From a phage, in sequence record PZ379074.1: a DNA stretch of 64,000 bases; one strand, written 5' to 3'. Shown here piece after piece: positions 49,339-64,000 of the stretch. Each line of letters begins with the position of its first letter. The stretch's first letter is position 1. Made by a program: the position numbers and the translations under genes. The notes under the pieces were generated by a model. It did no database searches and was not told the DNA's origin. It saw only the letters and a list, made by a program, of their open reading frames with translations.

Positions 49339-50301
49339 TTAAAAATACTCCATATCGGTAATATCACGGAAGCATTTATACAAAGCAGAGCGCGGCACAT
49401 CAACAATGCCAAAGTTAAAGAATTTATACGTTAGATATTTATCGCGATAGTTCTCGCGATTCTCCCAAAGCATTTTTCTCTCTGCCATAGGCATTGAACC
49501 AGCGGATACGCGGAAAGGAATCATTTCACCTTGCTCATCCACATATTTTGGATTGACGACTACGAATGAGCCAAGGTATCCTTTCGCAACTAAACCTTCA
49601 GCCTCTTTTGAACGCTTGGTGCGACCCAATTCGTCAATGAATGCTTCGTTGTTGTTCTCCATCATCTCAACGAAGTCTATGATCAGTCCTTCTTCATCGG
49701 TCCACGGCTTGTCCTTCCACACATCACGTGACTTTGGCGTCGCGCGGCCATGCTTGTATTTGCCCGTCCAAGACTTGCCATACAAGCCTTCATAGCCAAG
49801 CTGGTCTGCTTCGATTTGCATCGCCGCGTACTGTTCCATATTTTCGATGTTTCGATATTCGAGAGCGCGAAGGAATGGGCGTCGACCATGGTTGATGAGG
49901 TGCTGATTGACTTCAGCAACTCTAGCGCGATATTTTGCATAACGCTTTTCAAAAGGCAAATCAGGGTTGCTGAAGTCATCAAACACCCACCATGTAAAGT
50001 TAGTGATTGCATCAGTGTTCATGCATGCAGTATAGGCCTGTTGCATGACGTTCTTGTCGTTCGGATTACCGTCAATTAGCTCTCCATCAAGTCCGTGAAT
50101 TAGTTCACCCAAAAAGAGGAACTCTTTTTTGATTTGAACGTTGCGCAACGGCATGCCGGAAGTGCCCATTGGCAAGTTGTCATACGCCATTGCGCGTATG
50201 CCATCGACCTTGAATGACAGTCCGCAAGGCAGCGGAACGTCCTCGCCGCGCTCGATAATCTGCTTACGTTGGCAACCCTTCATTGGTTTTAATGCTGTCA
50301 T
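49339..50301 (-). CDS. ATP-dependent DNA ligase (nucleotidyltransferase)
   Basis: 320 aa; motif I KVDGIR (KxDGxR); size like small phage ATP ligases. Confidence 0.6.
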   Translation of the reverse strand: MTALKPMKGCQRKQIIERGEDVPLPCGLSFKVDGIRAMAYDNLPMGTSGMPLRNVQIKKEFLFLGELIHGLDGELIDGNPNDKNVMQQAYTACMNTDAITNFTWWVFDDFSNPDLPFEKRYAKYRARVAEVNQHLINHGRRPFLRALEYRNIENMEQYAAMQIEADQLGYEGLYGKSWTGKYKHGRATPKSRDVWKDKPWTDEEGLIIDFVEMMENNNEAFIDELGRTKRSKEAEGLVAKGYLGSFVVVNPKYVDEQGEMIPFRVSAGSMPMAERKMLWENRENYRDKYLTYKFFNFGIVDVPRSALYKCFRDITDMEYF

Positions 50302-50303
50302 AA

Positions 50304-50927
50304 TTATTGTCCTGTAACTTCTCTGATCACACGGTCTTCAAGTTCCAGCTTCTTTACCATTTTGCAGGAGTGCTCATAAGCTGGATCAGTAGATTTGATG
50401 AACGTTCCGTTGTACATGACACCTTTGCGGTCCTTGATGTCTTCGTAGGCCGCTTGCGCACAGTCGGATAAGCGAAGGCCATAATCATGAGCTACGCCGG
50501 AAAGGTAATCGACTGCGGCCATGATGGTGACGTCAATATCCATGGTCTGATTCTTAGCAATAGCATCACCAAGCCGTCCAAGGGTCTTTGCCAGGCGAAG
50601 GATGAATGAATGAGGGTGAGCGCCTTTATCAGCACAACCGCCGCCATTAATGTTTTCGATTTCAGTACCGTTTTGCGCCGCCAGGATGGTCAACACAACA
50701 AGACAATCGCCAATGTCGTCCTTGATTGCAGCTTGCAAGTCACAGATGGCCTGCTCTGTATATCCAATTTCAGGGTCGAAGAACACAAGGTCATGGAGTT
50801 GATCAACGTGGTCGGTTAACTCCCCAAACTCGCTGATAAGTTTCGGGTATTGGTCCTTAAGGTCGCAACCTTGGATGATGTTACGGTCAGAAGCCCACTG
50901 GCGAATGTTTGCATAAATCTGTTTCAT
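50304..50927 (-). CDS. MazG-like nucleotide pyrophosphohydrolase (putative)
   Basis: 207 aa; EFGELTDHV-type acidic helix motifs (ExxE...D); weak. Confidence 0.35.
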   Translation of the reverse strand: MKQIYANIRQWASDRNIIQGCDLKDQYPKLISEFGELTDHVDQLHDLVFFDPEIGYTEQAICDLQAAIKDDIGDCLVVLTILAAQNGTEIENINGGGCADKGAHPHSFILRLAKTLGRLGDAIAKNQTMDIDVTIMAAVDYLSGVAHDYGLRLSDCAQAAYEDIKDRKGVMYNGTFIKSTDPAYEHSCKMVKKLELEDRVIREVTGQ

Positions 50928-51500: not shown

Positions 51501-52361
51501 TTAAAACTCTTCTGCGTCGGTCGGAGTTTCGTTTACAGGACCAGCGGCACCGCTTGCTTCTTCCTGCTTGCTGCGGTCGATGTTGACGTTGCCGCCAACT
51601 ACGTCGTTGTGGAATGCTTTGGCGACTTCGTACAGACCTTTGCCCTGCACCAGACCTTCCAGCTCAAACTTCAGAACGGACCAGGTGTTGCCGTCTTTGG
51701 ACTGGGATGCAGTACCCATGCGAACGATGTTCATAAAGGTCGGCGGCGTTTTCAGACCTTGCGGAGTCTGAACTTTCTTCTGCTGCAGAGCGGTCATCAG
51801 CATGCGAGACGGCTTGATCATGGAAGAAGTCAAAGACAGCATTGCGCTACCAAATTCACCCGTTTCTTCGTTCAACAGAATTACGAAGTGGTTACGTGTA
51901 TCTGCGTAGTAAGGAGACTTCTTCTCGTGCACCTTTCCGTTTTCGTCCGGCACGAATACCTTACCGTTGATCTCAACAGCGCGGCCTGCCGCGACTTCTG
52001 CATCAACGTGCTCTTTGGTGAATTCACCTTTAAAGCCTTTATCGTCGGACTCGCGACCGCCCCAAAGGATGAAGGTGCGTTTGAATGCGCAAGGGATGAT
52101 CTGCACGCCTTTCTTGCCGTCATACAACTCACCAGTGACAGTGTTGTACAGCATGCCAGCTTTTGCGCCAGGAACGTGTTTCGGATCATCTTCGTCGACC
52201 ATAGGTGACATCTTCTGCAGGACGACGATAAAAGGAATGGCATACGCATCGGCATCGGCACCTTCAAAACCAGCGCCAAAATCGGTCATGTCGACAAAAT
52301 CAGCCATAGCGGACATCTGGGTGTTTTTCACTGCAACTTCGGTGGTTTCTTTCTTAGACAT
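51501..52361 (-). CDS. ssDNA-binding-like protein (acidic C-terminal tail ending in Phe)
   Basis: 286 aa; C-terminus ...NETPTDAEEF resembles acidic aromatic-tipped tails of SSB/T7 gp2.5-type proteins; replication module. Confidence 0.4.
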   Translation of the reverse strand: MSKKETTEVAVKNTQMSAMADFVDMTDFGAGFEGADADAYAIPFIVVLQKMSPMVDEDDPKHVPGAKAGMLYNTVTGELYDGKKGVQIIPCAFKRTFILWGGRESDDKGFKGEFTKEHVDAEVAAGRAVEINGKVFVPDENGKVHEKKSPYYADTRNHFVILLNEETGEFGSAMLSLTSSMIKPSRMLMTALQQKKVQTPQGLKTPPTFMNIVRMGTASQSKDGNTWSVLKFELEGLVQGKGLYEVAKAFHNDVVGGNVNIDRSKQEEASGAAGPVNETPTDAEEF

Positions 52362-52420
52362 TTGATATTTTCCTATAGTATCAAGTTTCGTGGCAACCTG
52401 ATTTCAAGATAAAGGTTAAA

Positions 52421-52978
52421 TTACTTTTTGCTTTTAGGCAAGGTTATTTTAGCTTCTTTGTATTCAAAAACGCTAATATCTTCACTAACTGGATTGCCCG
52501 CTTCCAGCTGTTCTTTTACAAACGACTTCAGTGTAGCAGAATGAACGCCTTGTTTCAACGTGGCTTCAACACCATCTTCACGCAGCGCGGAAACAATCTC
52601 TTGCGCCTGTTCGATTTCTTCGCGACCGAACTCAGCCGTGACGCTGGACTTGATCAAGCCGCCGTAACCGTTGTTGACAAGCCAATCGAAAACTTTTAAT
52701 TCGTTTTCTTTCTTGATTGAAGCGTTCACCTTGGACTCGACCTTGATTTTGGTCTTGTCCTCAAGCTTGATTTCGGACACGCCAAGCTCATCCATAACGC
52801 CAGGAAGCAGAACAGTTTTGATTTCACTGATTCGCTGCTTTTGCATATCAGCTTCATCTTCAAGCTCTGTCAAAGCTTCTTGGCGTTCTGCCAGTTCAGA
52901 TACTAAGCGCGCAAGGCGCTCTTGAATGCTCTCAGGAGCGACCTGCGGCAAATCATCTTCCCAATTAATATTGCTCAT
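52421..52978 (-). CDS. hypothetical acidic coiled-coil protein (185 aa)
   Basis: ORF in replication module. Confidence 0.5.
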   Translation of the reverse strand: MSNINWEDDLPQVAPESIQERLARLVSELAERQEALTELEDEADMQKQRISEIKTVLLPGVMDELGVSEIKLEDKTKIKVESKVNASIKKENELKVFDWLVNNGYGGLIKSSVTAEFGREEIEQAQEIVSALREDGVEATLKQGVHSATLKSFVKEQLEAGNPVSEDISVFEYKEAKITLPKSKK

Positions 52979-53312: not shown

Positions 53313-54836
53313 TTAATTCATCTTTTTGCCGTCGAGGATGTGATCAGCAAGCATAGACTTCATACTTAATGAACGCTGAATTTCTTCATCGATGGTATCA
53401 ACACCAATAAAATCAACATACAGCACACTTGATTTGGTGCCGATGCGGTGATTTCGGTCTTCGGATTGTTTGCGCAACTCGTTGTCATAGTTGCAAGAAT
53501 AATAGATTGCCAAGTCGGCGGCGGTAAGCGTGATACCGATTCCTGCCGCTGCAGCGTGACAAACAAGCACTTGCGTCCCACCGTTCTCGACTGTGTTCTT
53601 CTGGAAGTCATCAATCAAGAACTCACGCTGCTCTTTTGACGTCTCACCGTTATATACACCAGTGACCACGCCTTCAGACTCAAGCCAATCCTTAATCTGG
53701 TTCATCTCTTCCTTAAAGATGGCCCAAACAATGAATTTGCGCTCTGGGTCGTCTTCCAGCACCCCTTCCACATAGTCCTTAAAGGCCGTGAATCGTGGGT
53801 TGTCTTCCATGTAGACCATCTCATCATACACCTTAACAAAGCCTGATGTCACCTGCTTCATCTTAGTGCGAGATGCGATCATCTCAAACTTAACGTTTTC
53901 TTCTTCGCCTTTGTACTCCATAAGATAGTTGTACTCATTCTTGAGTTCATCGTAGACATCGCGCTGCTTAGGCGACAACTCGAAGTCGATAAACTTGTAC
54001 ACCTTCTCTGGAAGGTCCGGCAAGTATTCCGCTTTTGTGGCGCGGAAATAGTGCGGTTCCATCAACCGGATAAGCTTGTCAAGGTTTTTGTACATCGGTC
54101 GGCCAAACTGGTCCTTGCGCGGCACTTGCGGAATACCATAACCATTGCCGCCAATTTTCTTGAGAATGGCCTGCATCTCTGGGTCGTGCGCTTCAAGAAG
54201 CACTGTAAATTCAGAGTTGAATGCACGGAATGATTTGGTGCCGAGCAAGCCAGCTTCAAGGAAGTGATACTGCATGTAAATATCAGCAGGCGAGCGCGGC
54301 AGCGGAGTGCCAGAAAGGATTCGACGGGCCTTTGCCAGCCGACCCAATTCCACGACCTTGATGGAGCGTTTTGCTGTGTTATTTTTGATGCGAGTCGATT
54401 CATCAATGATCATCAGGCAGCGGTATTTCTTCAAGACCGACTCGATGTGTTGATAACCTACTGGTGTGTTGACGGTATCGATGTTGAATGAGAAGATGCG
54501 CGCAGGCACTTCGCCTTCAGGGTAGTGATCAGCAAACATCTTCTCCCAAAGCGCTTTGCCCTTTTTAGTCTTCATCTTGTCATTGCCGCGCCAGTAATGC
54601 CCAATCCATTTAATGGAAAGGTGTTCTGGTGCTTCACGACGAATCCAGTTCGAGTGGACACCGTTAGGAGCGATGACAACCATGGCATCAAATGCGCCAG
54701 CGGCGAAGTGTTTTTCAAACTCTGCCAAAGCAGTCCAGGTTTTACCAAGACCCTGTTCCATAAAATAAGCAAAGTATTTTCTGCGGCCTGCTTTATCAAG
54801 CGCCAATAATTGGTGGCGCATTCCTTGTGTTTTCAT
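53313..54836 (-). CDS. SNF2-family helicase
   Basis: 507 aa; motif I GLGKT, motif II DESTRIKN (DExx), C-terminal helicase region. Confidence 0.75.
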   Translation of the reverse strand: MKTQGMRHQLLALDKAGRRKYFAYFMEQGLGKTWTALAEFEKHFAAGAFDAMVVIAPNGVHSNWIRREAPEHLSIKWIGHYWRGNDKMKTKKGKALWEKMFADHYPEGEVPARIFSFNIDTVNTPVGYQHIESVLKKYRCLMIIDESTRIKNNTAKRSIKVVELGRLAKARRILSGTPLPRSPADIYMQYHFLEAGLLGTKSFRAFNSEFTVLLEAHDPEMQAILKKIGGNGYGIPQVPRKDQFGRPMYKNLDKLIRLMEPHYFRATKAEYLPDLPEKVYKFIDFELSPKQRDVYDELKNEYNYLMEYKGEEENVKFEMIASRTKMKQVTSGFVKVYDEMVYMEDNPRFTAFKDYVEGVLEDDPERKFIVWAIFKEEMNQIKDWLESEGVVTGVYNGETSKEQREFLIDDFQKNTVENGGTQVLVCHAAAAGIGITLTAADLAIYYSCNYDNELRKQSEDRNHRIGTKSSVLYVDFIGVDTIDEEIQRSLSMKSMLADHILDGKKMN

Positions 54837-55255
54837 GACAATTCCTCTAAATACTTGATGATGTGATGAATAGTTCCCTTCACGATTATCTCACGTTGAA
54901 CGTCTGCAGTATTATAACGCTTTAATTCAATAGAAGGGTGGACTAAATAAAACATCTTCTCAGAATCAACTTTAAGTAAAACGAATGATGGGTATCGCCA
55001 ATCATTCCAAGACGAAAGAAAGCTGCATTGGCCTTTCTCAAATGCATTTCTGAAAGGTGCAGTGGTGGCCCTTGCAGGCCACGATTCAAAGAACTTCATT
55101 TCAAGCCAAAAGCCGCGCCCTTTCCGGTTGGTGCCGATTACGTCCGGCACACCATCACCCGTCATTGATTCGATTCTTTGAAGCTTCAAGATTGATTCTG
55201 AATGCTTCTTCAAAGGCACGAATATGTATTTCTGTTCACGGTTATTTGTTGCCAT
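54833..55255 (-). CDS. VRR-NUC / PD-(D/E)xK-type nuclease (putative)
   Basis: GVPDVIGTNRKGRGFWLEMK (D...E.K pattern); start set at internal Met; overlaps end of polymerase gene. Confidence 0.45.
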   Translation of the reverse strand: MATNNREQKYIFVPLKKHSESILKLQRIESMTGDGVPDVIGTNRKGRGFWLEMKFFESWPARATTAPFRNAFEKGQCSFLSSWNDWRYPSFVLLKVDSEKMFYLVHPSIELKRYNTADVQREIIVKGTIHHIIKYLEELS

Positions 55256-58139
55256 TTGGATACACCTGTTTGATAACGTCGACGATGAACATGTCAATGC
55301 CTTCAAGTTTGCGGCCTTTCATCAGAAAGAATGCGCCGTTCCCGACGTTCTCTGCAATGTATTTCCCGTATTTCTGGAACTTCTCTGGACGAATCCTGAA
55401 GCGCATTGGCGAGTCGGTCGAATCGTCCTTGCACATAAGGTCAATGAACTGAGTCTCAAGCTTGTTTCCATACTGGTCAAACTCTGCGTAGCGGCCATCA
55501 GCTTGAAGACCCTTTTTAAGTTTGCCGTGCTTTGTATAAATGCCGCGCTCAAGACGTTTACGGATGCGTGTCGCTTCGTTCTCGTCAGCCAGCACTTTCT
55601 TGGTCAACTTGCCGATCACTATTGCACGCTCGTCATCTCCGACTTCCTTCATCTGGCGTATTGAAGCACCGGAAGTAACGCCAATCAGATAGGGGTCATT
55701 ATATGCCCAGCCGAACTTTGTGTGCATTTCGGTAAGGTCGCCGTATTTAACTTCAGCATTGGCCAATGCGTCCTTCTGTTTTTGCGTTAAGGTTCCGGCT
55801 TCACGCGCTTCGATGTACTTCATCGCCTTCACCATGCCATATCCTTTTGCGTTCATGATGCCGCCGATTAGCTTTCCGTTAGCGATGGTCCAGTTCATTG
55901 AAGAGTGATCAGGGTCGATTGGCACATAATCCACGCCTTCCTTCGCAAGTTCACGTAATATAGCAATCGTCTGGTCTTCGTCCTTAGCAGCGCGTAAGCA
56001 AGCAGCGGCAAATTCCAACGGGTAGTGTCGCTTAAGCCACAAGGTCCAGTAGGTCACGACCGCGTATGATACGGAGTGTGACTTGTTAAAGCCCCATGAC
56101 CCGAACGTCGCCATCGCTTGCCAAAGCTTTCTTGCATCCGCTTCCGGTACGCCGTTATTTATTGCGCCTGCAACGAAGTCTTCGCCAAGCTTGTTAAAGT
56201 ATTCCTCACCCTTACGACCTGACATCGCCTTACGTACAGCGGATGTTTTCGCCCAGTCAAATGAACCAATCTCTTTAACCACGGCCATGATTTGCTCTTG
56301 GTAAAGAAACACGCCGTAAGTCTCTTTTAAGTACGGCTCAAGCTGCGGCACGTCGTACTCAATCGGCGCACGTCCTGCCGCGCGTTCAATGTATTTCTGG
56401 GCCATACCGGACGACAACGGGCCAGGTCGGCCAAGTGCTGTCAGGTTATCGATTTTGTTAAAGTTATCAACGTGCACAAAGTTGGTCACTGAGCGTACAG
56501 CGTCGCCTTCAAACTGGAAGATGCCTGACATCTTGTTTTCGTTAAGGATGTCAAGGACGCTTTGGTCATCAAGCTTGATTCCGTACAGCGTTTCAGCATC
56601 TATCACGCCAGTATCAGAAATGATTCCGAGGGTACGAAGACCCAATGCATCAAGCTTCAAAAGGTTAAGGTATTCGCTGTCAGGCTTATCAATTTGCGCA
56701 ATCCCTTCCGCCGTCACCGTACAGTAATCAGAGATTGGGTCATTACACACAATGATTCCCGCTGCGTGAACGCCAGTGTGGGAAGGGTGAATCTCAAGGT
56801 CACCCATGCAACGCGCGGCGTCAGGATATTTCGCCACGAACTCTTGACCCGTAGTCGTTGTTGCAAAGGTATCCTCCAGGCCGTGACCATAACGGGCGTC
56901 ACCGGATGAGTATTCAAGCAGTGCGTTTTTAATGTTGGCCGTTTCGTGATATCCAATGTTGAACTTCTTACCAACCTGCGCCATTACTGAGTTGGCCTTA
57001 AGCGTGTTTATGTTGCCAAGCTTTGCAACGTTCATTTCGCCGTATTTCTCTTTAAGATAATCAAACACCATATAGCGTTTGGTATCTTCAAAGTCGATGT
57101 CGATGTCAGGAAGGTCGGCGCGGCTTACGTCGATGAATCGGGCAAACAGCAGCTTATACGGGATTGGGTCCACTTCCGTGATGCCGAGACAATAGCAAAC
57201 AAGTGAACCAGCCGATGAGCCGCGAGCAGGCCCGACTAGCATTTTTGTTTTTGCGAATCGTACAAGGTCCGCTACCACCAGAAAGTATGAGTCGAAATCT
57301 TTCAGCTGAATCTGGTGAATTTCTTCGTTGAAGCGGTCCTCATATTCCTGAGTCCATTCTTTGATGTGACCTGCTTTTAGACGGTACTCCATCCCCTCGC
57401 GAGCAAGCTTTACCATGTCACCAGCAAGGTGGATAATCGGTGCCTTTCGCAGCTTCAGGTCAAGCCCAACGATTCCGTTTGCAATATCAATCGCATTGAC
57501 CGTTGCCTGATCAAGCTCATCTTCAGTCAAGATTCCTTTAAGCTGTTTGCGCAAGTCTTCAACGTCAACGATGCAATGCGGCTTAACCGTGTCGCGCACT
57601 TCCCACGCATAAGCGAAGTCAACGTGCTCAGGAGAAGGCATGTGATTGTATCCGGTTAAAACCAGCGGCCTTCCACTGCTACGATGAGCCAACGCCTGGC
57701 GCTTTGCCAAAAGGAACGACGATGGGTTGACGTCTATATAGTCGTAGTCCTCTGGCCGCAGCAGTTCCACGGCACCGCCACAGAATTTAACGACGCCATC
57801 GAGCGCCCCGAACTCTGCACGGGTAAGACCACCACGCTGCGTTGCAAGTGTTGTAGCGTTGTAAAAAGATTTTAAGTCAAGGGCCAATATCCAAGCCTTC
57901 GGTTTGAATCCCTTTTTCGGGTCCGCATCAGGGTCGATGATTGGAATCTCCATTCCAAACATAGGCTTAATATCATTTTTCTGGCATTCCTTTTCCCAGC
58001 GAACGTGACCCCATGTGTTGTTATCAACTAATGCCGCGACTTCGCAGCCCAACTCTTTGAGCCGTGCTATAATTTCAGGATGCCGTCCATAAACTTCTTT
58101 GAACGTGTAACCGCTGCGAACTCTCAATTGTGGAAACAT
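55242..58139 (-). CDS. DNA polymerase III alpha (DnaE)-like replicative polymerase
   Basis: 965 aa; N-terminal PHP-like region and long polymerase core; adjacent separate DnaQ-like exonuclease. Confidence 0.75.
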   Translation of the reverse strand: MFPQLRVRSGYTFKEVYGRHPEIIARLKELGCEVAALVDNNTWGHVRWEKECQKNDIKPMFGMEIPIIDPDADPKKGFKPKAWILALDLKSFYNATTLATQRGGLTRAEFGALDGVVKFCGGAVELLRPEDYDYIDVNPSSFLLAKRQALAHRSSGRPLVLTGYNHMPSPEHVDFAYAWEVRDTVKPHCIVDVEDLRKQLKGILTEDELDQATVNAIDIANGIVGLDLKLRKAPIIHLAGDMVKLAREGMEYRLKAGHIKEWTQEYEDRFNEEIHQIQLKDFDSYFLVVADLVRFAKTKMLVGPARGSSAGSLVCYCLGITEVDPIPYKLLFARFIDVSRADLPDIDIDFEDTKRYMVFDYLKEKYGEMNVAKLGNINTLKANSVMAQVGKKFNIGYHETANIKNALLEYSSGDARYGHGLEDTFATTTTGQEFVAKYPDAARCMGDLEIHPSHTGVHAAGIIVCNDPISDYCTVTAEGIAQIDKPDSEYLNLLKLDALGLRTLGIISDTGVIDAETLYGIKLDDQSVLDILNENKMSGIFQFEGDAVRSVTNFVHVDNFNKIDNLTALGRPGPLSSGMAQKYIERAAGRAPIEYDVPQLEPYLKETYGVFLYQEQIMAVVKEIGSFDWAKTSAVRKAMSGRKGEEYFNKLGEDFVAGAINNGVPEADARKLWQAMATFGSWGFNKSHSVSYAVVTYWTLWLKRHYPLEFAAACLRAAKDEDQTIAILRELAKEGVDYVPIDPDHSSMNWTIANGKLIGGIMNAKGYGMVKAMKYIEAREAGTLTQKQKDALANAEVKYGDLTEMHTKFGWAYNDPYLIGVTSGASIRQMKEVGDDERAIVIGKLTKKVLADENEATRIRKRLERGIYTKHGKLKKGLQADGRYAEFDQYGNKLETQFIDLMCKDDSTDSPMRFRIRPEKFQKYGKYIAENVGNGAFFLMKGRKLEGIDMFIVDVIKQVYPNGNK

Positions 58140-58681
58140 TATTTACTCCAGATGTCATATACGCCAATTTGTTGGCAGACTTTGTGCAGTAATATTACGT
58201 CGTCTAATGCACGGTGTTTCTGTTCATATTTTCCGAAATATAATTCATACAGCTCTTGAAGCTTAACTCTTCGGCCAAAAATAGGCAAGGTTTGCTCAAC
58301 TGTACAAATGTTTATTTCTGGAAAATTAACATCATCAAGCGTAAGTCCTTCGCGCTGTAGTGCATAATCAAGAATGTTTTTATCGAACGCATGGTTGTGC
58401 GCGATAGTGGCATCCGTCTTCTTGAAGATTTCTTTTAGCTGCGGGACAAAATTGATGAATGGTGGATTGCACTCAAGGTCTTCATTTGTTAATCCGGTAA
58501 TCTTTGTGATAATTTCTTCAATCACGATTTCAGGATTAATTATGAATTCAAACGTTTCAAGAATCTCTTTGCCGTCTGTCAACAGGCCTGCAAATTCAAT
58601 AGGGCGCGGCTGCATCCCAAGCGGCGCTTTCGGGTGCACGGTCAATCCGGTTGTTTCGAAGTCATAAGGGAGAAATAACAC
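58139..58681 (-). CDS. DnaQ-like 3'-5' exonuclease (DEDDh)
   Basis: 180 aa; Exo I DFETTG, Exo II HNHAFD, Exo III HRALDD; stop overlaps polymerase start. Confidence 0.8.
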   Translation of the reverse strand: MLFLPYDFETTGLTVHPKAPLGMQPRPIEFAGLLTDGKEILETFEFIINPEIVIEEIITKITGLTNEDLECNPPFINFVPQLKEIFKKTDATIAHNHAFDKNILDYALQREGLTLDDVNFPEINICTVEQTLPIFGRRVKLQELYELYFGKYEQKHRALDDVILLHKVCQQIGVYDIWSK

Positions 58682-58735
58682 ATTAGCCTCCTACAAAAAG
58701 GCCGCCCATTAGGACGGCCACAGATTCACGATTCA

Positions 58736-59287
58736 TTATACAGTGTACGGAGTACCGTCTTGATTCAACCGCACGATGAACTTAAGGTCGACACCAATGA
58801 TTTCACGCGTATCAAAGATAACATAGTTGTAACGACGCTGACCAGCAATGTTTGGGTTGGTGTGAGAGTCGGTCACAACTTCCTGCGCAACCTGAATGCC
58901 TTCTTCTTTAAAGAACTTGCGCCATTCAGCAAGTTCAGCGGCAGTCACGTGCATACCAAGATGGCTAACCTGATTGTCGTGCGCATCGATGTATTCGATG
59001 TTTTCGTGAATCCAGTTGCAACCTTTTGTATAGTCAAGAATTTCAAGCTCAAGAGGCTTACCAGCGTCGCCATCGGTGCCGTTGCCAGCCTGATAGTTGA
59101 AGCGCAAGTCAGCTTCGTTGGTGCAATCGCCGCGCTGACCCTTAAAGACATCAGCTTCAAATACGCGACCAGTAGCAACAACGTGATCATGGAACCATTC
59201 TGTCAGGCCGATTTTAGCCAGGAAATTCTGTGCGCGCTGAGCACCTGGAATTGACAGGGCGATTTGTTCAATTTTAAAATGTGGCAT
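58736..59287 (-). CDS. hypothetical protein (183 aa), in nucleotide-metabolism operon
   Basis: ORF co-directional with SDR/HAD/thyX genes; no motif recognised. Confidence 0.5.
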   Translation of the reverse strand: MPHFKIEQIALSIPGAQRAQNFLAKIGLTEWFHDHVVATGRVFEADVFKGQRGDCTNEADLRFNYQAGNGTDGDAGKPLELEILDYTKGCNWIHENIEYIDAHDNQVSHLGMHVTAAELAEWRKFFKEEGIQVAQEVVTDSHTNPNIAGQRRYNYVIFDTREIIGVDLKFIVRLNQDGTPYTV

Positions 59288-59307
59288 TTTGTTTCCTTAA
59301 TTAAATA

Positions 59308-59478
59308 TTATTGATTAATTACTGTGTTGCCTTCGATGGAATAAGTCTCAATGGAACCGACGCGCTCGTGGTTAATCTTTGCGTTTTCGATTCTTATTAC
59401 TTCAAATCCAACACCTTCTTGATCAATCTTCACTTCTGCTACGTCGCCAATCACTTCTACAACAACTTTGATAGTCAT
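59308..59478 (-). CDS. hypothetical small protein (56 aa)
   Basis: Not in track (<60 aa); starts 3 nt after SDR stop. Confidence 0.35.
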   Translation of the reverse strand: MTIKVVVEVIGDVAEVKIDQEGVGFEVIRIENAKINHERVGSIETYSIEGNTVINQ

Positions 59479-59481
59479 GAT

Positions 59482-60165
59482 TTATTTCCCAAATGGAATA
59501 TCAGTACCAGACATAAAGCGCCATGCGCCCGTAATTAAGATATGGCGAATGAAGTCAGCAATTACTTGCGGCTCAGTCTCCAATCCATTCATCAGCGCCT
59601 TTTTCTGGTATTCAGCAGCATACTCAGGAGTCCAGCCGCGAGTCGCACAAACAGCATCTTCAATCTGTTTGGACATGCCAGTACCACGTAACTTATTAGG
59701 ACTAATAGAAAATACCGTGATCCCGTATTTAGGCGTAAGCTCGTGAGCCATCTGCTTGCTAATCATGAGCGCAGCAGCCTTGGAAGCATTATAACACAAG
59801 CTGGACGTCATAGGAATATGCGCAGCGTTGGAAACGATGTTGATCACAAAACCTTTGTTGTCGATAAGACTTTTCAGCGCGGCTTGAGTTGTGTTAACGA
59901 AAGAGAAGGCGTTGGTATGCATAACGCGGTTAAACTCTTCGTAGTTGACATCTTCAAACCAGTTGTTGGAGTTGACTCCAGCACAGTTGATCAAGCCTTC
60001 TACATCATATGGGCTTAAAATTTCTTTCATCTGTTTAGCGTCGCGGACGTCATATCCGTATGCTGAATCGATTCCAAGCACGTTATGACCGTAAGCGCCA
60101 AGGGTGTCAAAAATAGATTTACCAAGACCGGAATTGGAACCTGTTACAACAATTACTTTTTTCAT
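59482..60165 (-). CDS. short-chain dehydrogenase/reductase (SDR) family oxidoreductase
   Basis: 227 aa; cofactor motif TGSNSGLGK (TGxxxGxG); catalytic YNASK (YxxxK). Confidence 0.7.
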   Translation of the reverse strand: MKKVIVVTGSNSGLGKSIFDTLGAYGHNVLGIDSAYGYDVRDAKQMKEILSPYDVEGLINCAGVNSNNWFEDVNYEEFNRVMHTNAFSFVNTTQAALKSLIDNKGFVINIVSNAAHIPMTSSLCYNASKAAALMISKQMAHELTPKYGITVFSISPNKLRGTGMSKQIEDAVCATRGWTPEYAAEYQKKALMNGLETEPQVIADFIRHILITGAWRFMSGTDIPFGK

Positions 60166-60231
60166 TTATTTATCCTTTTTTGGACTTCGTTTCGACGAGA
60201 TAAATATAACTCATCGAAACGCACAAGTAAA

Positions 60232-61104
60232 CTATTTATTGAAATTAATATTGTGGGTGTTGACGAGACGTTCACACATGGCGCTGTAAACACCATCATC
60301 GTGTATAGAGTCTTCGTGCTTCAGGCCGCTGATTGCAAAGCGTGTAAGCTTGACAATCTTAAGCTCGAACAGATGCCACATGTGGTAGTCTTCCGGTGTC
60401 TTCAACGTTACGCCATTAGGGAACAACACCTGCATAACCTGACCTACCATCACAGCGTTATCGCCATAGACAGCGTTGCGCTCACGGAAGGTTGCTGCCA
60501 TTGCATCAAGAATATCGGCGGCAGTTGCCGGAGATTGTTCAACTTCTACATCCTTAGTCTCTTCTTGCCCTGTTGCGCTTGGATCAATTGCTAATTGTTG
60601 CACCACTTCACCTGCTTTGCAAAGATTAAATGTAAAAGCGATTTTATTTTGAGCAACGGAGTTATAATACAATGCTTCATCTTGCATCCGCGCGAGTACG
60701 TCTTGTCGGTCGTCGAATACATTGATGATTCGATAATCGCCGTGCTGCAAAGCGTGCGATAGCCATGCAGATTTCATAATAGTTGATGGACGTTTGTCGC
60801 CATAGTCTCTCATCTTGATTGTAAATTCATCAAAAGGAAAAACATTGTCCAGACGTTCAAAAGTCACTTGTCTGTATTTTTCTGGCCTTGCAGTCCAATA
60901 TTCAACCGCCTCACCGCGAAGAGATGCCGACTCTACTGCTGATGCAATGTGAGGATAGAACTGATCATAACCAATACCGCTGTGATAGTCATCATAGTCT
61001 GACAACGGACCTGCCACCTTGATGCGGTCTAAGCGCCAACGGTCATCAAACAGCGTTCCGTCAAGGTCGAATACGTTTAAGATTTCGCTGTTTTTAATGC
61101 TCAT
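60232..61104 (-). CDS. HAD-superfamily hydrolase-like protein (phosphatase/nucleotidase candidate)
   Basis: 290 aa; N-terminal motif I FDLDGTLFD (DxDGT); stop overlaps thyX start region. Confidence 0.5.
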   Translation of the reverse strand: MSIKNSEILNVFDLDGTLFDDRWRLDRIKVAGPLSDYDDYHSGIGYDQFYPHIASAVESASLRGEAVEYWTARPEKYRQVTFERLDNVFPFDEFTIKMRDYGDKRPSTIMKSAWLSHALQHGDYRIINVFDDRQDVLARMQDEALYYNSVAQNKIAFTFNLCKAGEVVQQLAIDPSATGQEETKDVEVEQSPATAADILDAMAATFRERNAVYGDNAVMVGQVMQVLFPNGVTLKTPEDYHMWHLFELKIVKLTRFAISGLKHEDSIHDDGVYSAMCERLVNTHNINFNK

Positions 61105-61931
61105 CCTTTTGATACTCCATCTTTGGCAACCGGATTATTGGTGATTGGCATTGCATTCCAAAACTGGATGCGTAATTCTTCTTGCTGTGCAGTGGTATCC
61201 ATCCAATCACGATACCAAGGGCAATGGGCCTTGCCATGGCGAGGGAATGCGCACTTGCCCATGCCGATGCATTGCGGCTGTAGTAAAGGATTAGCCCACG
61301 GGTGCACCTTGAGGACTTCAGCTACCATCGCACGGAAAACTTCCTGATACTCGCCTTGAGTGCGCGTGCACAAGCGGTTTGACGCCATCTGTTGCAGCGT
61401 TCGCAAGTTGAACTTTGCCATGATATGCGTTTGCATATTAGAAGGCAACACGGCACGTGCATCTTGAATCTCTGCGCCAGCCGCGCGAAGCTCTTGGTAG
61501 AGGGCGTCAATCGTTGCCATGGCATCATCCCACTTCTCTGCTAAGTATTGCTTTTGAAGTAAAGATTGATGCTCTTCATCAGTTCCAAATGCTTCACAGT
61601 GATCAATCAACTCTGGATTTTGGTGTGAAAATGCCTTCGGACGAATCGCATCAAACGCTGACGACTCCTGAGCGCGGCTTGTTCGTTCTTGATATGCACC
61701 TGTTCGTGTGCGCACCATCTGATGAGTCATATTCTTTGATACATCAGTGATGTCAAAGATATAGTCAACAAAGTCGAAAGGTGACTTTATGGTGTCAAGC
61801 ATGTAGCGCCAGTGCTCTTGCTTCTCTGATTCTGTCATCTCAGAGACTGGCTTACCAGTCATGCGCGTATTCTTTGTTTCCAGCAGAAGGTCAAGTGCAT
61901 CTTGGGTGTATCGAATTAATTCAACTTTCAT
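61101..61931 (-). CDS. thyX: flavin-dependent thymidylate synthase ThyX homolog (RTR variant of the RHR motif)
   Basis: 276 aa; RTRTGAYQERTSR aligns to ThyX RHRxxxxxxxS region; LPSNMQTHIMAKFNLRTLQQMASNR resembles ThyX substrate-loop region. Confidence 0.65.
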   Translation of the reverse strand: MKVELIRYTQDALDLLLETKNTRMTGKPVSEMTESEKQEHWRYMLDTIKSPFDFVDYIFDITDVSKNMTHQMVRTRTGAYQERTSRAQESSAFDAIRPKAFSHQNPELIDHCEAFGTDEEHQSLLQKQYLAEKWDDAMATIDALYQELRAAGAEIQDARAVLPSNMQTHIMAKFNLRTLQQMASNRLCTRTQGEYQEVFRAMVAEVLKVHPWANPLLQPQCIGMGKCAFPRHGKAHCPWYRDWMDTTAQQEELRIQFWNAMPITNNPVAKDGVSKG

Positions 61932-61944
61932 TTTAATTATCCTA

Positions 61945-62391
61945 TTAACGGTAGTTAACTAGTTGCTGATCACCAGAGAAGGTGCAATGATAAACGAATT
62001 GTGCGTTATAAAGCAACTGAAAACTTTTCTTTGGTTCATTATTAGAACTCATTGATGTAAAGATTTCTGCACCAGAACGGTTTTCACCAATCAGGTTGAT
62101 AAAGCCGCCAGTTGAACGAGGCTGAACGAAAGTGAAACGTTGCATCCACGGAGTGCGGTTGGCACCTTTCCCTGTGAATCCTTGAATCTGAATATTCAGG
62201 CCTTCTTGCTCGTTCACACCGATGTAAGTGGTAATTGTTGCGCCAGTCGTTGCTGCGGTCTTGCCGTCCATCGCTTCGCAATCGTAAACAGCGATTGAAT
62301 CGGAAGTACGGACAGCGGCTTCAGTCGCTTCCATATACATGGTTCCGAGAATAGCAGTTGCGGCAAGCGCGATTCCAGTGATTCGTTTCAT
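61945..62391 (-). CDS. secreted protein (148 aa) with signal peptide
   Basis: MKRITGIALAATAILGTMYMEATEAA signal-like N-terminus; lies between FAD oxidoreductase and thyX. Confidence 0.5.
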   Translation of the reverse strand: MKRITGIALAATAILGTMYMEATEAAVRTSDSIAVYDCEAMDGKTAATTGATITTYIGVNEQEGLNIQIQGFTGKGANRTPWMQRFTFVQPRSTGGFINLIGENRSGAEIFTSMSSNNEPKKSFQLLYNAQFVYHCTFSGDQQLVNYR

Positions 62392-62456
62392 TTTCGTTTC
62401 CTCTATGAGTTCTGCTTCAATGATTAAAGTATACGCCCATTGAAGCAGAAAGCAAA

Positions 62457-63452
62457 TTATTTATTAGCAATATAAGCAAATTTTTGATAGTTATTTGCTT
62501 TGATGAGTTTTTCAACTTCAACAAGGTCATGAGCAACGTCATCAAGCAAAATGTTTCGCCAAGTAGCAAATCGACCGACACTAAATACGTTCAAATCCAT
62601 GGTCAGCTGTAGGAGTAGAGCGTGTCGCAAGTCTTTCGGAATGTCGACAATCTTGCCATACTTCTGGTCGACCTTTTCAACTTCTTCGAGAGCGATGTCA
62701 CTCCATGATAGGCCAAAGGCTGTCAATACTTCGTCAACTTCTGCACGCAACTTAATGTCACGGTAACGAGTAATGCCGCCAGCGGCTTCAATTGCGGCTT
62801 CACTTACGCTAACCAAAGGAATTGTTTCAATGATCAGTGTGTCACCAGTGATTGATGCACGGTAAGTTCTGACGGAGTAGTCAGGAAAGTAAATGGTTTG
62901 ATACAGTTCACACTTGCGTTTAATCTTAAAGCGGTAAACACGAATGTTTGCCTTATCGAATGAGAAATCAATCTTTTGATCAATCCCAGCAAGCTTCATC
63001 ATGACTGGAAGCGGCGACGTGTTGATGATTGGCGTCTCGCTATAGCCGCAAAGAGTATCAACAGGAGTATTAAAGAATATGCGGTCACCCAGTTTGTCGA
63101 CAAGCTGATCATAAAAGTCATCAGGCGCAATATAACGCGTTGCAGTTTTAAGCTTCATGATTGAACGGCTGCCAAACTGATTGGTGACCTTCATGGAATA
63201 CATATTGGCAAGGTTGATTGGGCAATGGTCGTGGTAGTAGTTGCCGCGAAAATACACAGCCTTGTCAACTGTCACGGCTTTAAAAGGGATTCCGGTAATA
63301 CGGCTTACTTCTTCGCCGCGAAAGCGTAGCAACGCCTTGTGCTGTGGCGCTCGCTCCCCTGCTTCGTACACAATAGAGTTCGGGAAGTGACACGCGGTAA
63401 TAAGTCCTGCCAAACCGCCGCCGATAATCATTACAGGTTGTTTCATGTTCAT
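62457..63452 (-). CDS. FAD/NAD(P)-binding oxidoreductase
   Basis: 331 aa; N-terminal dinucleotide-binding fingerprint VMIIGGGLAGL (GxGxxG). Confidence 0.6.
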   Translation of the reverse strand: MNMKQPVMIIGGGLAGLITACHFPNSIVYEAGERAPQHKALLRFRGEEVSRITGIPFKAVTVDKAVYFRGNYYHDHCPINLANMYSMKVTNQFGSRSIMKLKTATRYIAPDDFYDQLVDKLGDRIFFNTPVDTLCGYSETPIINTSPLPVMMKLAGIDQKIDFSFDKANIRVYRFKIKRKCELYQTIYFPDYSVRTYRASITGDTLIIETIPLVSVSEAAIEAAGGITRYRDIKLRAEVDEVLTAFGLSWSDIALEEVEKVDQKYGKIVDIPKDLRHALLLQLTMDLNVFSVGRFATWRNILLDDVAHDLVEVEKLIKANNYQKFAYIANK

Positions 63453-63530
63453 TTGTCCTTTGTGGGTGATATGAGAAGTATAATAGCTAAATTATTTTAC
63501 AGCAACAAGTCATTTCTATTTAGTACAGAC

Positions 63531-63560
63531 GAAAAAAGACCCACAACAAGTGTGGGTCAA
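63531..63560 (-). terminator. rho-independent terminator (minus strand) after partial upstream gene
   Basis: GACCCACA-acaa-GTGTGGGTC stem; on minus strand followed by TTTTTTC. Confidence 0.6.
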
Positions 63561-63586
63561 TTACCGCTATATAACCGTCCTACAGG

Positions 63587-64000
63587 TTATTCCGCTTGAT
63601 CACCGTCTTCAGCATCGTCGTTTGATTCAACATCGACAAACTCGATGTGGCCCATCTCTTCCAGCTTGCTCAGGTAGGAGCGAACGGAAGCGCCAAACAG
63701 TTGATCTTTAACTTTTTCGCCCAGCTCATCGATAGACTGTGCCACACCAACTTCGCCTTCTTTGATCGCCGCCAGAACGCGTCCACGGGTGGAGTGCTCC
63801 TGCGGCTGGCTCAGGCCATTGCCAGTGTAGATGAAGTGAGTAGCTTTTGCACGACGCTGACCGTTTGCCTTTTTAGCAGCCTTACGTTCTGCGATGGCTT
63901 TGCGACGTTCTTCAGCTTCTTTCTTACGCTGTTCTTTCTGCTGTTCTGCAGCTTCTTTCGCCGCAATCTTAGCAGCTTCACGCTCTGCCTTGCGTTTCGC
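63587..64000 (-). CDS. partial CDS (C-terminal part; start beyond window end): Lys/Ala/Glu-rich basic repeat region plus acidic C-terminus
   Basis: Open minus-strand frame from window edge to TAA at 63587-63589; ...KRKAERKAAKIAAKEAAEQQKEQRKK...VESNDDAEDGDQAE; high-expression-type codons. Confidence 0.5.
   Translation of the reverse strand, partial: AKRKAEREAAKIAAKEAAEQQKEQRKKEAEERRKAIAERKAAKKANGQRRAKATHFIYTGNGLSQPQEHSTRGRVLAAIKEGEVGVAQSIDELGEKVKDQLFGASVRSYLSKLEEMGHIEFVDVESNDDAEDGDQAE

Follow-up and report, generated by a model that had tools for sequence, protein, structure and literature searches.

A divergent ThyX clade and a phage flavoprotein encoded upstream of dnaQ-dnaE in Wifcevirus and PB1-like phages

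ThyX, the flavin-dependent thymidylate synthase, is an antibiotic target whose mechanism has been argued largely from a few invariant residues, namely Ser88, Tyr91, His53 and the RHR motif. A member of the family that lacks three of these residues is encoded on the phage sequence PZ379074.1, a stretch of 64,000 nucleotides (the window), where its gene is one of seven co-directional minus-strand genes at positions 58736–63452, which the list of open reading frames (ORFs) places directly upstream of dnaQ-dnaE. The most solid new point of the present analysis is that this protein belongs to a large phage ThyX clade without His53, the RHR histidine and Tyr91, which is co-distributed with an uncharacterised, phage-only flavoprotein encoded in the same run of genes. 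The window itself belongs to Wifcevirus: a megablast search with positions 58000–64000 matched 30 phage records, 29 of them with at least 80% query coverage, and identity is 95–97% to the listed records, which include the Escherichia phages ManiWeber_Bas99 (Bas99), FEC19, WFC, WFH, ECML-117 and vB_Eco4M-7. Wifcevirus phages are myoviruses that are distantly related to the Pseudomonas Pbunavirus (PB1-like) phages (PMC11990801).

In ThyX enzymes described so far, Ser88 and Tyr91 are regarded as strictly conserved and critical (PMC11940539), and His53, stacked against the pterin and the reduced flavin, forms a hydrogen bond with Tyr91 (PMC11940539, PMC8316439). A relative with a broader substrate range is PolB of polyoxin biosynthesis (PDB 4p5a), a ThyX homolog that accepts both UMP and deoxyuridine monophosphate (dUMP) for methylation (PMC5003785) and owes this shift to its substrate-recognition peptide (the Glu-x-Ser-x-Arg-Tyr region). 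Although the same peptide is altered in the phage clade, PolB retains Tyr99 as well as the RHR histidine, which makes contact with the phosphate of the substrate (PMC5003785), and both residues are missing from the clade, and the profile match between PolB and the phage protein is weak (E 0.0014). Among the actinobacteriophage proteins called “ThyX-like thymidylate synthase”, gp78 of Mycobacterium phage Hawkeye resembles the clade: its RxR motif is also non-His (RQR), the Arg174 counterpart is followed by a Cys, the C-terminus has a Cys-x6-Cys...Cys motif, and the gene likewise adjoins that of DNA polymerase III alpha (DnaE). Identity to gp78 is, however, only ~25%, and it has Phe at the position of Tyr91, where the phage clade has Ala or Val.

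The thymidine hypermodification clusters of the phages M6, ViI, PaMx11 and PhiW-14 (PMC8989533) also have a flavoprotein near a thymidylate-synthase-type enzyme. These clusters serve restriction evasion and start from a ThyA-type dUMP hydroxymethylase, and the PaMx11 flavoenzyme, gp47, is MnmC-like, which the flavoprotein studied here is not. Known thymidine hypermodification needs a ThyA-type hydroxymethylase or a TET/JBP enzyme together with a 5-hydroxymethyldeoxyuridine (5-hmdU) DNA kinase and a transferase of the aGPT-Pplase type (PMC8989533).

The ThyX-like protein and its clade

The ThyX-like protein of the window, which is 276 residues long, matches the Pfam family Thy1 (PF02511) over profile positions 2–191 of 191 with 103.6 bits against a cutoff of 24.8 (E 1.5e-29), and it matches solved ThyX chains at E ~1e-3 by phmmer and at 3e-9 by profile. 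The first-pass annotation, which had been made from the letters of the window, pointed out RTR in the place of the canonical RHR, and alignment to solved ThyX confirms it: in the HMMER alignments, the chains of T. maritima, M. tuberculosis and 6j61 have RHR where the 276-residue protein has RTR, and the counterparts of His53 and Tyr91 are lost as well.

The extent of these changes was followed in a MAFFT alignment of 88 clade members, in which T. maritima ThyX served as the residue reference; residues 36–201 of this reference agree with the solved chain except at two positions, which were taken as engineered in the crystal variant. The middle residue of the RxR motif, corresponding to His79, is Thr in 69 members, Ser in 16, Asn in two and His in one. 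At the position of Tyr91 there is Val (50 members), Ala (35) or Thr (3) and never Tyr, the window protein having Ala, while His53 is replaced by Ile and His59 by Phe in 88/88 and His178 by Arg in 86. The counterparts of Gln75, Arg78, Arg80, Arg90, Arg147, Arg165 and Arg174, which take part in binding dUMP and flavin adenine dinucleotide (FAD), are retained in 87–88 members, that of Asn163 is also conserved, and that of Ser88 is Thr or Ser in 84, a conservative change. By its residue pattern, the clade retains a predicted cradle for nucleotide and flavin and has other residues in place of the folate-gating/general-acid pair and the motif histidine. Canonical enzymes such as T. maritima TM0449, M. 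tuberculosis ThyX and PBCV-1 A674R have the Thy1 domain and the binding residues in common with the phage protein, which differs from them in RTR for RHR, Ile for His53, Phe for His59, Ala or Val for Tyr91, Arg for His178 and, in half of the clade, in a C-terminal four-cysteine extension.

The four cysteines, C188, C221, C227 and C237, are an all-or-none feature of 40 of the 88 members; roughly half of the clade, among them the proteins of the Rhizobium phage and of the ~41-kb phages described below, has none of them. C188 is located two residues past the Arg174 counterpart, and the other three are found in the C-terminal extension, which is of variable length; the set is a probable metal site for Zn or Fe-S. 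With members in hundreds of sequenced phages, among them the Pbunavirus phages in wide use for Pseudomonas therapy, a clade that has lost three key residues and kept the rest of the active site is a natural experiment on the mechanism of ThyX.

The flavoprotein, the HAD/four-helix protein and their coupling to ThyX

The flavoprotein, composed of 331 residues, matches no Pfam family at E up to 0.1, GLF, NAD_binding_8 and amine oxidase included. Its modelled fold is nearest to those of UDP-galactopyranose mutase (UGM), protoporphyrinogen oxidase (PPOX) and the amine oxidases, with TM-scores of 0.55–0.61 to the UGM fold class, and it is ~35–150 residues shorter than the proteins of the class formed by UGM, PPOX, amine oxidases and renalase. 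True membership in the UGM family was rejected, as hhalign against E. coli Glf gave a probability of 4% and aligned 20 N-terminal residues, those of the dinucleotide-binding motif, leaving a likeness of fold only. Many arginines are invariant in the family, and within the fold class A. fumigatus UGM and renalase have been solved with bound NAD(P)H.

The family comprises 1913 clusters in a large protein database, nearly all of them from contigs 60–73 kb long, and it was detected in 362 of 50,697 phage records, of which 292 are from Pseudomonas and 27 from Escherichia phages, followed by those of Serratia, Rhizobium, Xanthomonas, Pantoea, Vibrio and others. Cellular homologs were considered as a source of known operon context and set aside: in 185,579 reference genomes there are six flavoprotein loci, all on contigs of metagenome-assembled genomes (MAGs) with the same phage module. 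The family is essentially phage-only. Represented by no fewer than 362 isolate records and by 1913 protein clusters, the gene set, which the first-pass annotation had regarded as “not a standard phage nucleotide set”, turns out to be standard for a very large group of phages.

The third conserved protein, of 290 residues, is composed of two domains. Its N-terminal domain is a phosphatase domain of the polynucleotide kinase/phosphatase (PNKP) type from the HAD superfamily, which scores 33.2 bits with HAD_PNKP against a cutoff of 27.6 and whose catalytic motifs, among them DLDGT and the motif IV DD (FDDRQD), are intact in the translation. No P-loop 5'-kinase domain was found in the protein by Pfam, and its remainder is a four-helix bundle. 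The T4 polynucleotide kinase/phosphatase shares the capless DxDxT HAD domain, whereas its kinase domain is replaced in the phage protein by the four-helix domain, which elsewhere is a separate following gene. Searched with a profile, 1.84 billion representative proteins yielded 2044 members of the four-helix family, either free-standing at ~100–180 residues or C-terminal in proteins of 240–430 residues, and in other phages the domain is fused to HAD or encoded immediately after it. Ten members were scanned for Pfam domains, and those with any match had HAD_PNKP only; the four-helix domain looks like a dedicated partner of the HAD phosphatase. Its invariant residues (R24, Y28, N31, H59, K67, R70, H78, D80, S81, H83 and D84 in domain numbering) include Arg, Lys, His and Asp side chains that suggest ligand binding or catalysis. 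A MazG-like or other all-alpha NTP pyrophosphohydrolase identity was rejected, as the domain matches neither MazG nor dimeric dUTPase nor HisE in fold or sequence, and PDB profile searches with this family and with that of the 183-residue protein returned nothing informative. The four-helix profile does reach E 0.004–0.06 with the POU-specific domain of Oct-1 and related factors over ~55 residues, which was taken as chance helical similarity.

The genomic context of these genes was compared in 83 loci (80 viral-contig loci and three annotated loci, L001–L003), whose ORFs were searched with the window proteins. The order flavoprotein, ThyX-like protein, HAD/four-helix protein, sometimes the short-chain dehydrogenase/reductase (SDR) and the VOC-like protein, and then DnaQ and DnaE recurs across PB1-like phages, and with eight further loci the gene order extends to 91, down to 29% flavoprotein identity. 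The ThyX-like gene comes after the flavoprotein gene in 79 of the 83 loci, the four exceptions being loci that end within ~2 kb on the ThyX side; the HAD/four-helix gene follows in 73 (in some as two adjacent ORFs), dnaQ in 59 and dnaE in 55. In the MAG loci, with a flavoprotein identity of 29–34%, neighbouring genes in the series flavoprotein, ThyX-like and HAD either adjoin directly or have 4 nucleotides in common, and in Pbunavirus up to five small ORFs lie between the flavoprotein and ThyX genes. Phages of ~41 kb (L085–L088, including Ralstonia phage PY059YO380) have the block from the flavoprotein to SNF2, with HAD and four-helix as separate genes and, in L085 and L086, a dCMP deaminase further along the module. 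The replication/nucleotide module is common to phages of different genome size.

The independent case is the 206-kb Rhizobium phage RHph_TM2_3B of the Kleczkowskaviridae, in which the flavoprotein, a ThyX protein of the same clade (with RNR) and a HAD/four-helix fusion are encoded within 6.7 kb; the trio adjoins dUTPase and ribonucleotide reductase genes, and the dnaQ-dnaE arrangement is not in common. In the set of 50,697 phage records, members of the ThyX clade come from the taxa that also have the flavoprotein, to which 23 actinophage and two further Rhizobium records are added. That ThyX is coupled with the HAD protein and the flavoprotein does not look like an accident, given this co-distribution in isolates, the recurrence in 91 loci and the clustering in an unrelated Rhizobium jumbo phage. 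The 148-residue protein and the 56-residue ORF are confined to Wifcevirus, and the SDR and the 183-residue protein are an optional pair. For the phrog_4828 flavoprotein and the four-helix domain, both conserved in phages, the genomic coupling to ThyX offers a concrete functional hypothesis.

Proposed roles and the state of the phage DNA

The reading that we favour, with a probability of about 0.45, is a replisome-linked module for the supply of thymidine monophosphate (dTMP), in which a ThyX-family enzyme with an altered folate/NADPH side has a dedicated flavoprotein partner. We infer the catalytic roles, dTMP formation included, from gene structure, folds, families, residue pattern, synteny and co-distribution. 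The unit would be the Wifcevirus form of a conserved nucleotide-precursor module upstream of dnaQ-dnaE in the PB1-like supergroup. As none of the residues that bind dUMP and FAD is missing, the divergent ThyX-like enzyme most probably continues to transfer one carbon to C5 of dUMP and to provide the phage polymerase with dTMP; Bas99 has no second annotated thymidylate synthase. Lost from the phage enzyme are the RHR histidine and the pair of His53 and Tyr91, residues which in canonical ThyX gate the folate/NADPH site, stack with flavin and pterin and provide the general acid, and the flavoprotein may make up for what the altered site has ceased to provide. It could give reducing equivalents to the ThyX flavin, or it could give the methylene unit, for example as an aldehyde or iminium from an oxidase-type reaction, which the reduced ThyX flavin would capture. 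Delivery of the carbon by a partner is chemically plausible, since ThyX is able to methylate dUMP using formaldehyde directly instead of folate (PMC8316439). The PNKP-type HAD phosphatase and its four-helix partner would contribute to the process by trimming either a DNA end or a phosphorylated nucleotide, with the SDR and VOC pair as a putative optional add-on and the 148-residue protein and 56-residue ORF as probable lineage-specific passengers. Even if the module serves ordinary dTMP supply, the annotations “polynucleotide kinase” and “FabG” are corrected.

Several observations weigh against this proposal. The 276-residue protein stays below the NCBIfam equivalog cutoff for thyX (TIGR02170, 79.3 against 87.9 bits). 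In studied enzymes, the Y91A exchange slows the methylene-transfer step more than 100-fold (PMC8316439), mutation of Y91 is cited as lowering the flavin oxidation rate ~1000-fold (PMC11940539), and Y99A, the equivalent exchange in PolB, nearly abolishes activity (PMC5003785); with Val or Ala at this very position, the clade may therefore be no efficient dTMP synthase. As no flavoprotein or HAD/four-helix homolog was found near Hawkeye gp78, the flavoprotein partner is not universally required by ThyX-like proteins. Nothing was found that physically links the flavoprotein to ThyX, and synteny alone is weak evidence of a common function because most of the loci represent one replication module inherited together; what is proposed for the SDR and VOC-like proteins and for the HAD and four-helix domains is guesswork. 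A bolder version of the proposal is rather improbable. It sees in the ThyX-like protein and the phage-only flavoprotein an undescribed two-component flavin system for dUMP C5 modification, with the HAD/four-helix protein as its dedicated nucleotide phosphatase, which would either be independent of folate and NADPH, the partner giving carbon or electrons, or make a thymidine analogue behind the restriction resistance of Wifcevirus.

The resistance of Wifcevirus to restriction systems is unexplained, as is the reported latent period of 3–5 min, and the phages are highly sensitive to the type III system EcoP1_I and resistant to EcoCFT_II, though the site numbers are similar (PMC11990801). An absence of sites does not account for the resistance, because the window contains 13 EcoRI, 3 EcoRV, 3 EcoKI and 78 EcoP1I sites; HindIII has 49 sites in it and SspI 42. 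Over the whole window (1–64000), the observed/expected ratio of GATC is 0.36, and ratios below 0.5 are found for 24% of the 6-mer palindromes with at least 5 expected versus 0.5% of the non-palindromic 6-mers. Among the avoided sites that contain T are GATATC, TCCGGA, AGCGCT and GGTACC; BamHI, KpnI, SacII, GGCGCC, TCCGGA and CGGCCG sites are lacking altogether where ~2–18 of each are expected from a Markov model, EcoRV has its 3 sites against 15–18 expected, and HindIII, SalI and EcoP15I (CAGCAG) sites are over-represented. Such avoidance of palindromes is a pattern that would be shown by DNA still exposed to restriction, and it argues against a blanket protection of bases.

The gene content agrees with this. 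The annotation of Bas99, a complete genome that is 97% identical to the window, lists a separate MazG-like pyrophosphatase and a ligase only and no dUMP hydroxymethylase, nucleotide or dNMP kinase, glycosyltransferase or methyltransferase, nor the 5-hmdU DNA kinase and aGPT-Pplase-type transferase of the M6, ViI, PaMx11 and PhiW-14 clusters, these absences resting on the annotation of the record and not on an HMM (hidden Markov model) scan of every ORF. Pbunavirus DNA has been cut with SacII (PMC3008698), whose site is T-free and so uninformative on modification of T, and no report of unusual bases in Pbunavirus DNA was found in the literature searched. DNA modification by the module is not supported. 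For the idea that the additional redox enzymes and the phosphatase synthesise a modified nucleotide or sugar, no evidence emerged, given the modification enzymes missing from Bas99, the classical type of the SDR and the strong palindrome avoidance; as a pathway it is neither proven nor refuted.

A specific form of that idea, which must be called doubtful, is a non-canonical pyrimidine pathway, in which the ThyX-like enzyme would divert its exocyclic-methylene intermediate (for instance to 5-hydroxymethyl-dUMP), the product would be tailored by the flavoprotein, joined in some phages by the SDR and VOC-like proteins, and removal of the canonical thymidine nucleotide would fall to the HAD/four-helix protein, with partly modified, restriction-resistant DNA as the outcome. 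The replacement of catalytic ThyX residues throughout the clade (PMC11940539), the ability of ThyX-family enzymes to switch substrate, as PolB does (PMC5003785), and the action of flavin-dependent enzymes such as PaMx11 gp47 in thymidine hypermodification (PMC8989533) would all suit such a pathway, and the unexplained resistance to restriction-modification keeps the idea alive (PMC11990801). If the module did alter thymidine chemistry, this would explain the escape of Wifcevirus from type I, II and III restriction and would add a ThyX-based route to the ThyA-based routes of phage DNA modification. Yet the palindrome avoidance extends to T-containing sites, the modification kinase, transferase, glycosyltransferase and methyltransferase are missing from the Bas99 annotation, the known phage routes to 5-hmdU all use ThyA-type enzymes (PMC8989533), and Pbunavirus, in which SacII cuts the DNA at its uninformative, T-free site (PMC3008698), has the core genes as well.

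The genes may also have no pathway in common and be neighbours by descent within one replication module, which we consider possible if somewhat unlikely. The ThyX-like protein would then be an ordinary, divergent and self-sufficient dTMP synthase, the HAD/four-helix protein a DNA 3'-phosphatase that heals ends together with the phage ligase, and the flavoprotein, SDR and VOC-like protein unrelated auxiliary or host-takeover enzymes. Nearly all loci with the gene order also have DnaQ, DnaE, SNF2 and Pam3 gp32-34-like genes, the PNKP-type HAD acts on nucleic-acid ends in T4 (Pfam PF25109) and a DNA ligase is encoded nearby (49339–50301), PHROG classes the SDR as a moron/auxiliary metabolic gene, SDR and VOC are dispensable in Pbunavirus, and the small ORFs part the flavoprotein from ThyX in the same phages. 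Common descent accounts less well for the trio in the Kleczkowskaviridae jumbo phage, which sits among nucleotide-metabolism genes without the dnaQ-dnaE arrangement, for the 4-nucleotide overlap of the flavoprotein and ThyX-like genes in the most divergent loci and for the one-to-one co-distribution of flavoprotein and ThyX-clade records in isolates, and the clade-wide loss of His53 and Tyr91 calls for a compensating feature. It is very unlikely that the ThyX-like protein is no longer a methylase and has become a dUMP/FAD-binding redox or regulatory subunit attached to the DnaE replisome, with a four-cysteine Fe-S/Zn centre. In favour of this stand the loss of the general-acid Tyr, the cysteines that are all-or-none in 40 of 88 members with one of them just past the catalytic Arg174 counterpart, and the similar motif of the DnaE-adjacent Hawkeye protein, but the invariant nucleotide- and flavin-binding residues form the pattern of a working active site, and about half of the clade, with the Rhizobium and 41-kb phages, has none of the cysteines.

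Layout of the unit, accessory genes and neighbours

The features of the unit and the adjoining replication genes are collected in Table 1. The seven genes, which are separated by gaps of 3–66 nucleotides and in the case of the ThyX and HAD genes overlap by 4 nucleotides, look like one transcription unit that is formally separate from dnaQ-dnaE, so that the co-directional run described in the first-pass annotation upstream of these genes stands as a discrete unit, bracketed by terminator-like hairpins. Both boundary terminators are also annotated in the record of phage WFC, where the 3' one was scored -17.3. As terminator-like sites in the region are no more numerous than in shuffled sequence, the argument rests on the placement of the two hairpins and on the independent WFC annotation.

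Table 1. Features of the gene unit of the window and of the replication genes that follow it, in the direction of transcription
Feature	Position	Strand	Description
Intrinsic-terminator-like hairpin, 5' boundary of the unit	63538..63558	-	Ends the upstream gene; GACCCACA-CTTGT-TGTGGGTC, then T6
FAD-binding protein, 331 aa	62457..63452	-	N-terminal GxGxxG (IIGGGLAGL); phrog_4828
Signal-peptide protein, 148 aa	61945..62391	-	Probable N-terminal Sec signal MKRITGIALAATAILGTMYMEATEA/AV in the translation
Divergent ThyX-family flavoenzyme, RTR clade, 276 aa	61101..61931	-	Pfam Thy1
290-aa protein, whole gene	60232..61104	-	PNKP-type HAD and four-helix domain
N-terminal domain of the 290-aa protein, PNKP-type HAD phosphatase	60580..61104	-	Pfam HAD_PNKP; phrog_4889
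C-terminal domain of the 290-aa protein, four-helix bundle of ~100 aa	60232..60549	-	
Classical SDR, 227 aa	59482..60165	-	adh_short; phrog_3142 “FabG-like”
ORF, 56 aa	59308..59478	-	Annotated in Bas99
VOC (glyoxalase/dioxygenase/epimerase)-like protein, 183 aa	58736..59287	-	Glyoxalase_4 matches among family members
Strong intrinsic-terminator-like hairpin, 3' boundary of the unit	58700..58719	-	In the gap between the 183-aa gene and dnaQ; GGCCGTCC-TAAT-GGGCGGCC, then T5
dnaQ-like proofreading exonuclease	58139-58681	-	RNase_T 9.6e-22
dnaE-type DNA polymerase III alpha	55242-58139	-	Bas99 annotation

The first-pass calls of an FAD protein, a ThyX homolog, a HAD protein and an SDR proved right, and the 183-residue protein, which it had left unassigned, can now be described as probably VOC/glyoxalase-like. 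The SDR matches adh_short with 109.1 bits (E 2.6e-31) and has the TGxxxGxG motif and the catalytic Ser-Tyr-Lys in its translation; Asp33, with which strand beta-2 ends, points to NAD(H) as the probable preferred cofactor. Its other matches are generic, and no NCBIfam equivalog cutoff is reached among the best 25 of the 203 matching families. A role as FolM or pteridine reductase found no support, the NCBIfam matches being all generic and far below cutoff; the glycine-rich motif of the SDR is without the Arg that is presumably typical of FolM and PTR1. A role in NDP-sugar metabolism, of the RmlD or epimerase type, was also rejected, as the matches to Epimerase and RmlD_sub_bind are faint and the SDR is of the classical and not the extended type.

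The 183-residue protein on its own reaches Glyoxalase_4 at E 0.088 with 13.5 bits against a cutoff of 27, which is sub-threshold, and 21 of 34 members of its family match Glyoxalase_4, the best at E 9.3e-06. Candidate metal ligands are Q8, E82, H109 and D167 (alignment A4). The SDR gene is found in 51 of the 83 loci and the VOC-like gene in 49, and among the loci listed the two are present or absent together except for contig-end truncations and locus L022; the pair is absent from Pbunavirus proper. The 148-residue protein matches no family and has homologs in four of the 83 loci, all Wifcevirus. The 56-residue ORF occurs in three and is absent from WFC, where there is a gap of 96 nucleotides instead. 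Both are Wifcevirus-only inserts outside the conserved set; the position of the 56-residue ORF is an indel hotspot inside the operon, variable even within Wifcevirus. PADLOC gave no defence or anti-defence match for any of the seven proteins, and no functional data on the genes of the module were found in the literature on Wifcevirus, Pbunavirus, ThyX-like proteins and DUF6378.

Beyond dnaE, an ORF of 157 residues with a TTG start (54833–55306) overlaps the 3' end of dnaE by 65 nucleotides. Its counterpart in Bas99 is shorter (140 residues) and labelled “DNA helicase”, it has no Pfam match in the scan, and a homolog lies downstream of dnaE in 32 of the 83 loci. Further along, a separate 207-residue gene on the minus strand (50304–50927), which is called “MazG-like pyrophosphatase” in Bas99 and has no Pfam match at E ≤0.01, adjoins the ATP-dependent DNA ligase gene (49339–50301). 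The minus-strand genes at 51501–52978 belong to the Pfam families Pam3_Gp34 and DUF7307 (Pam3 gp33-like), which, together with Pam3_gp32 in relatives, accompany the replication module in PB1-like phages and in the ~41-kb phages (L085, 2742–4435).

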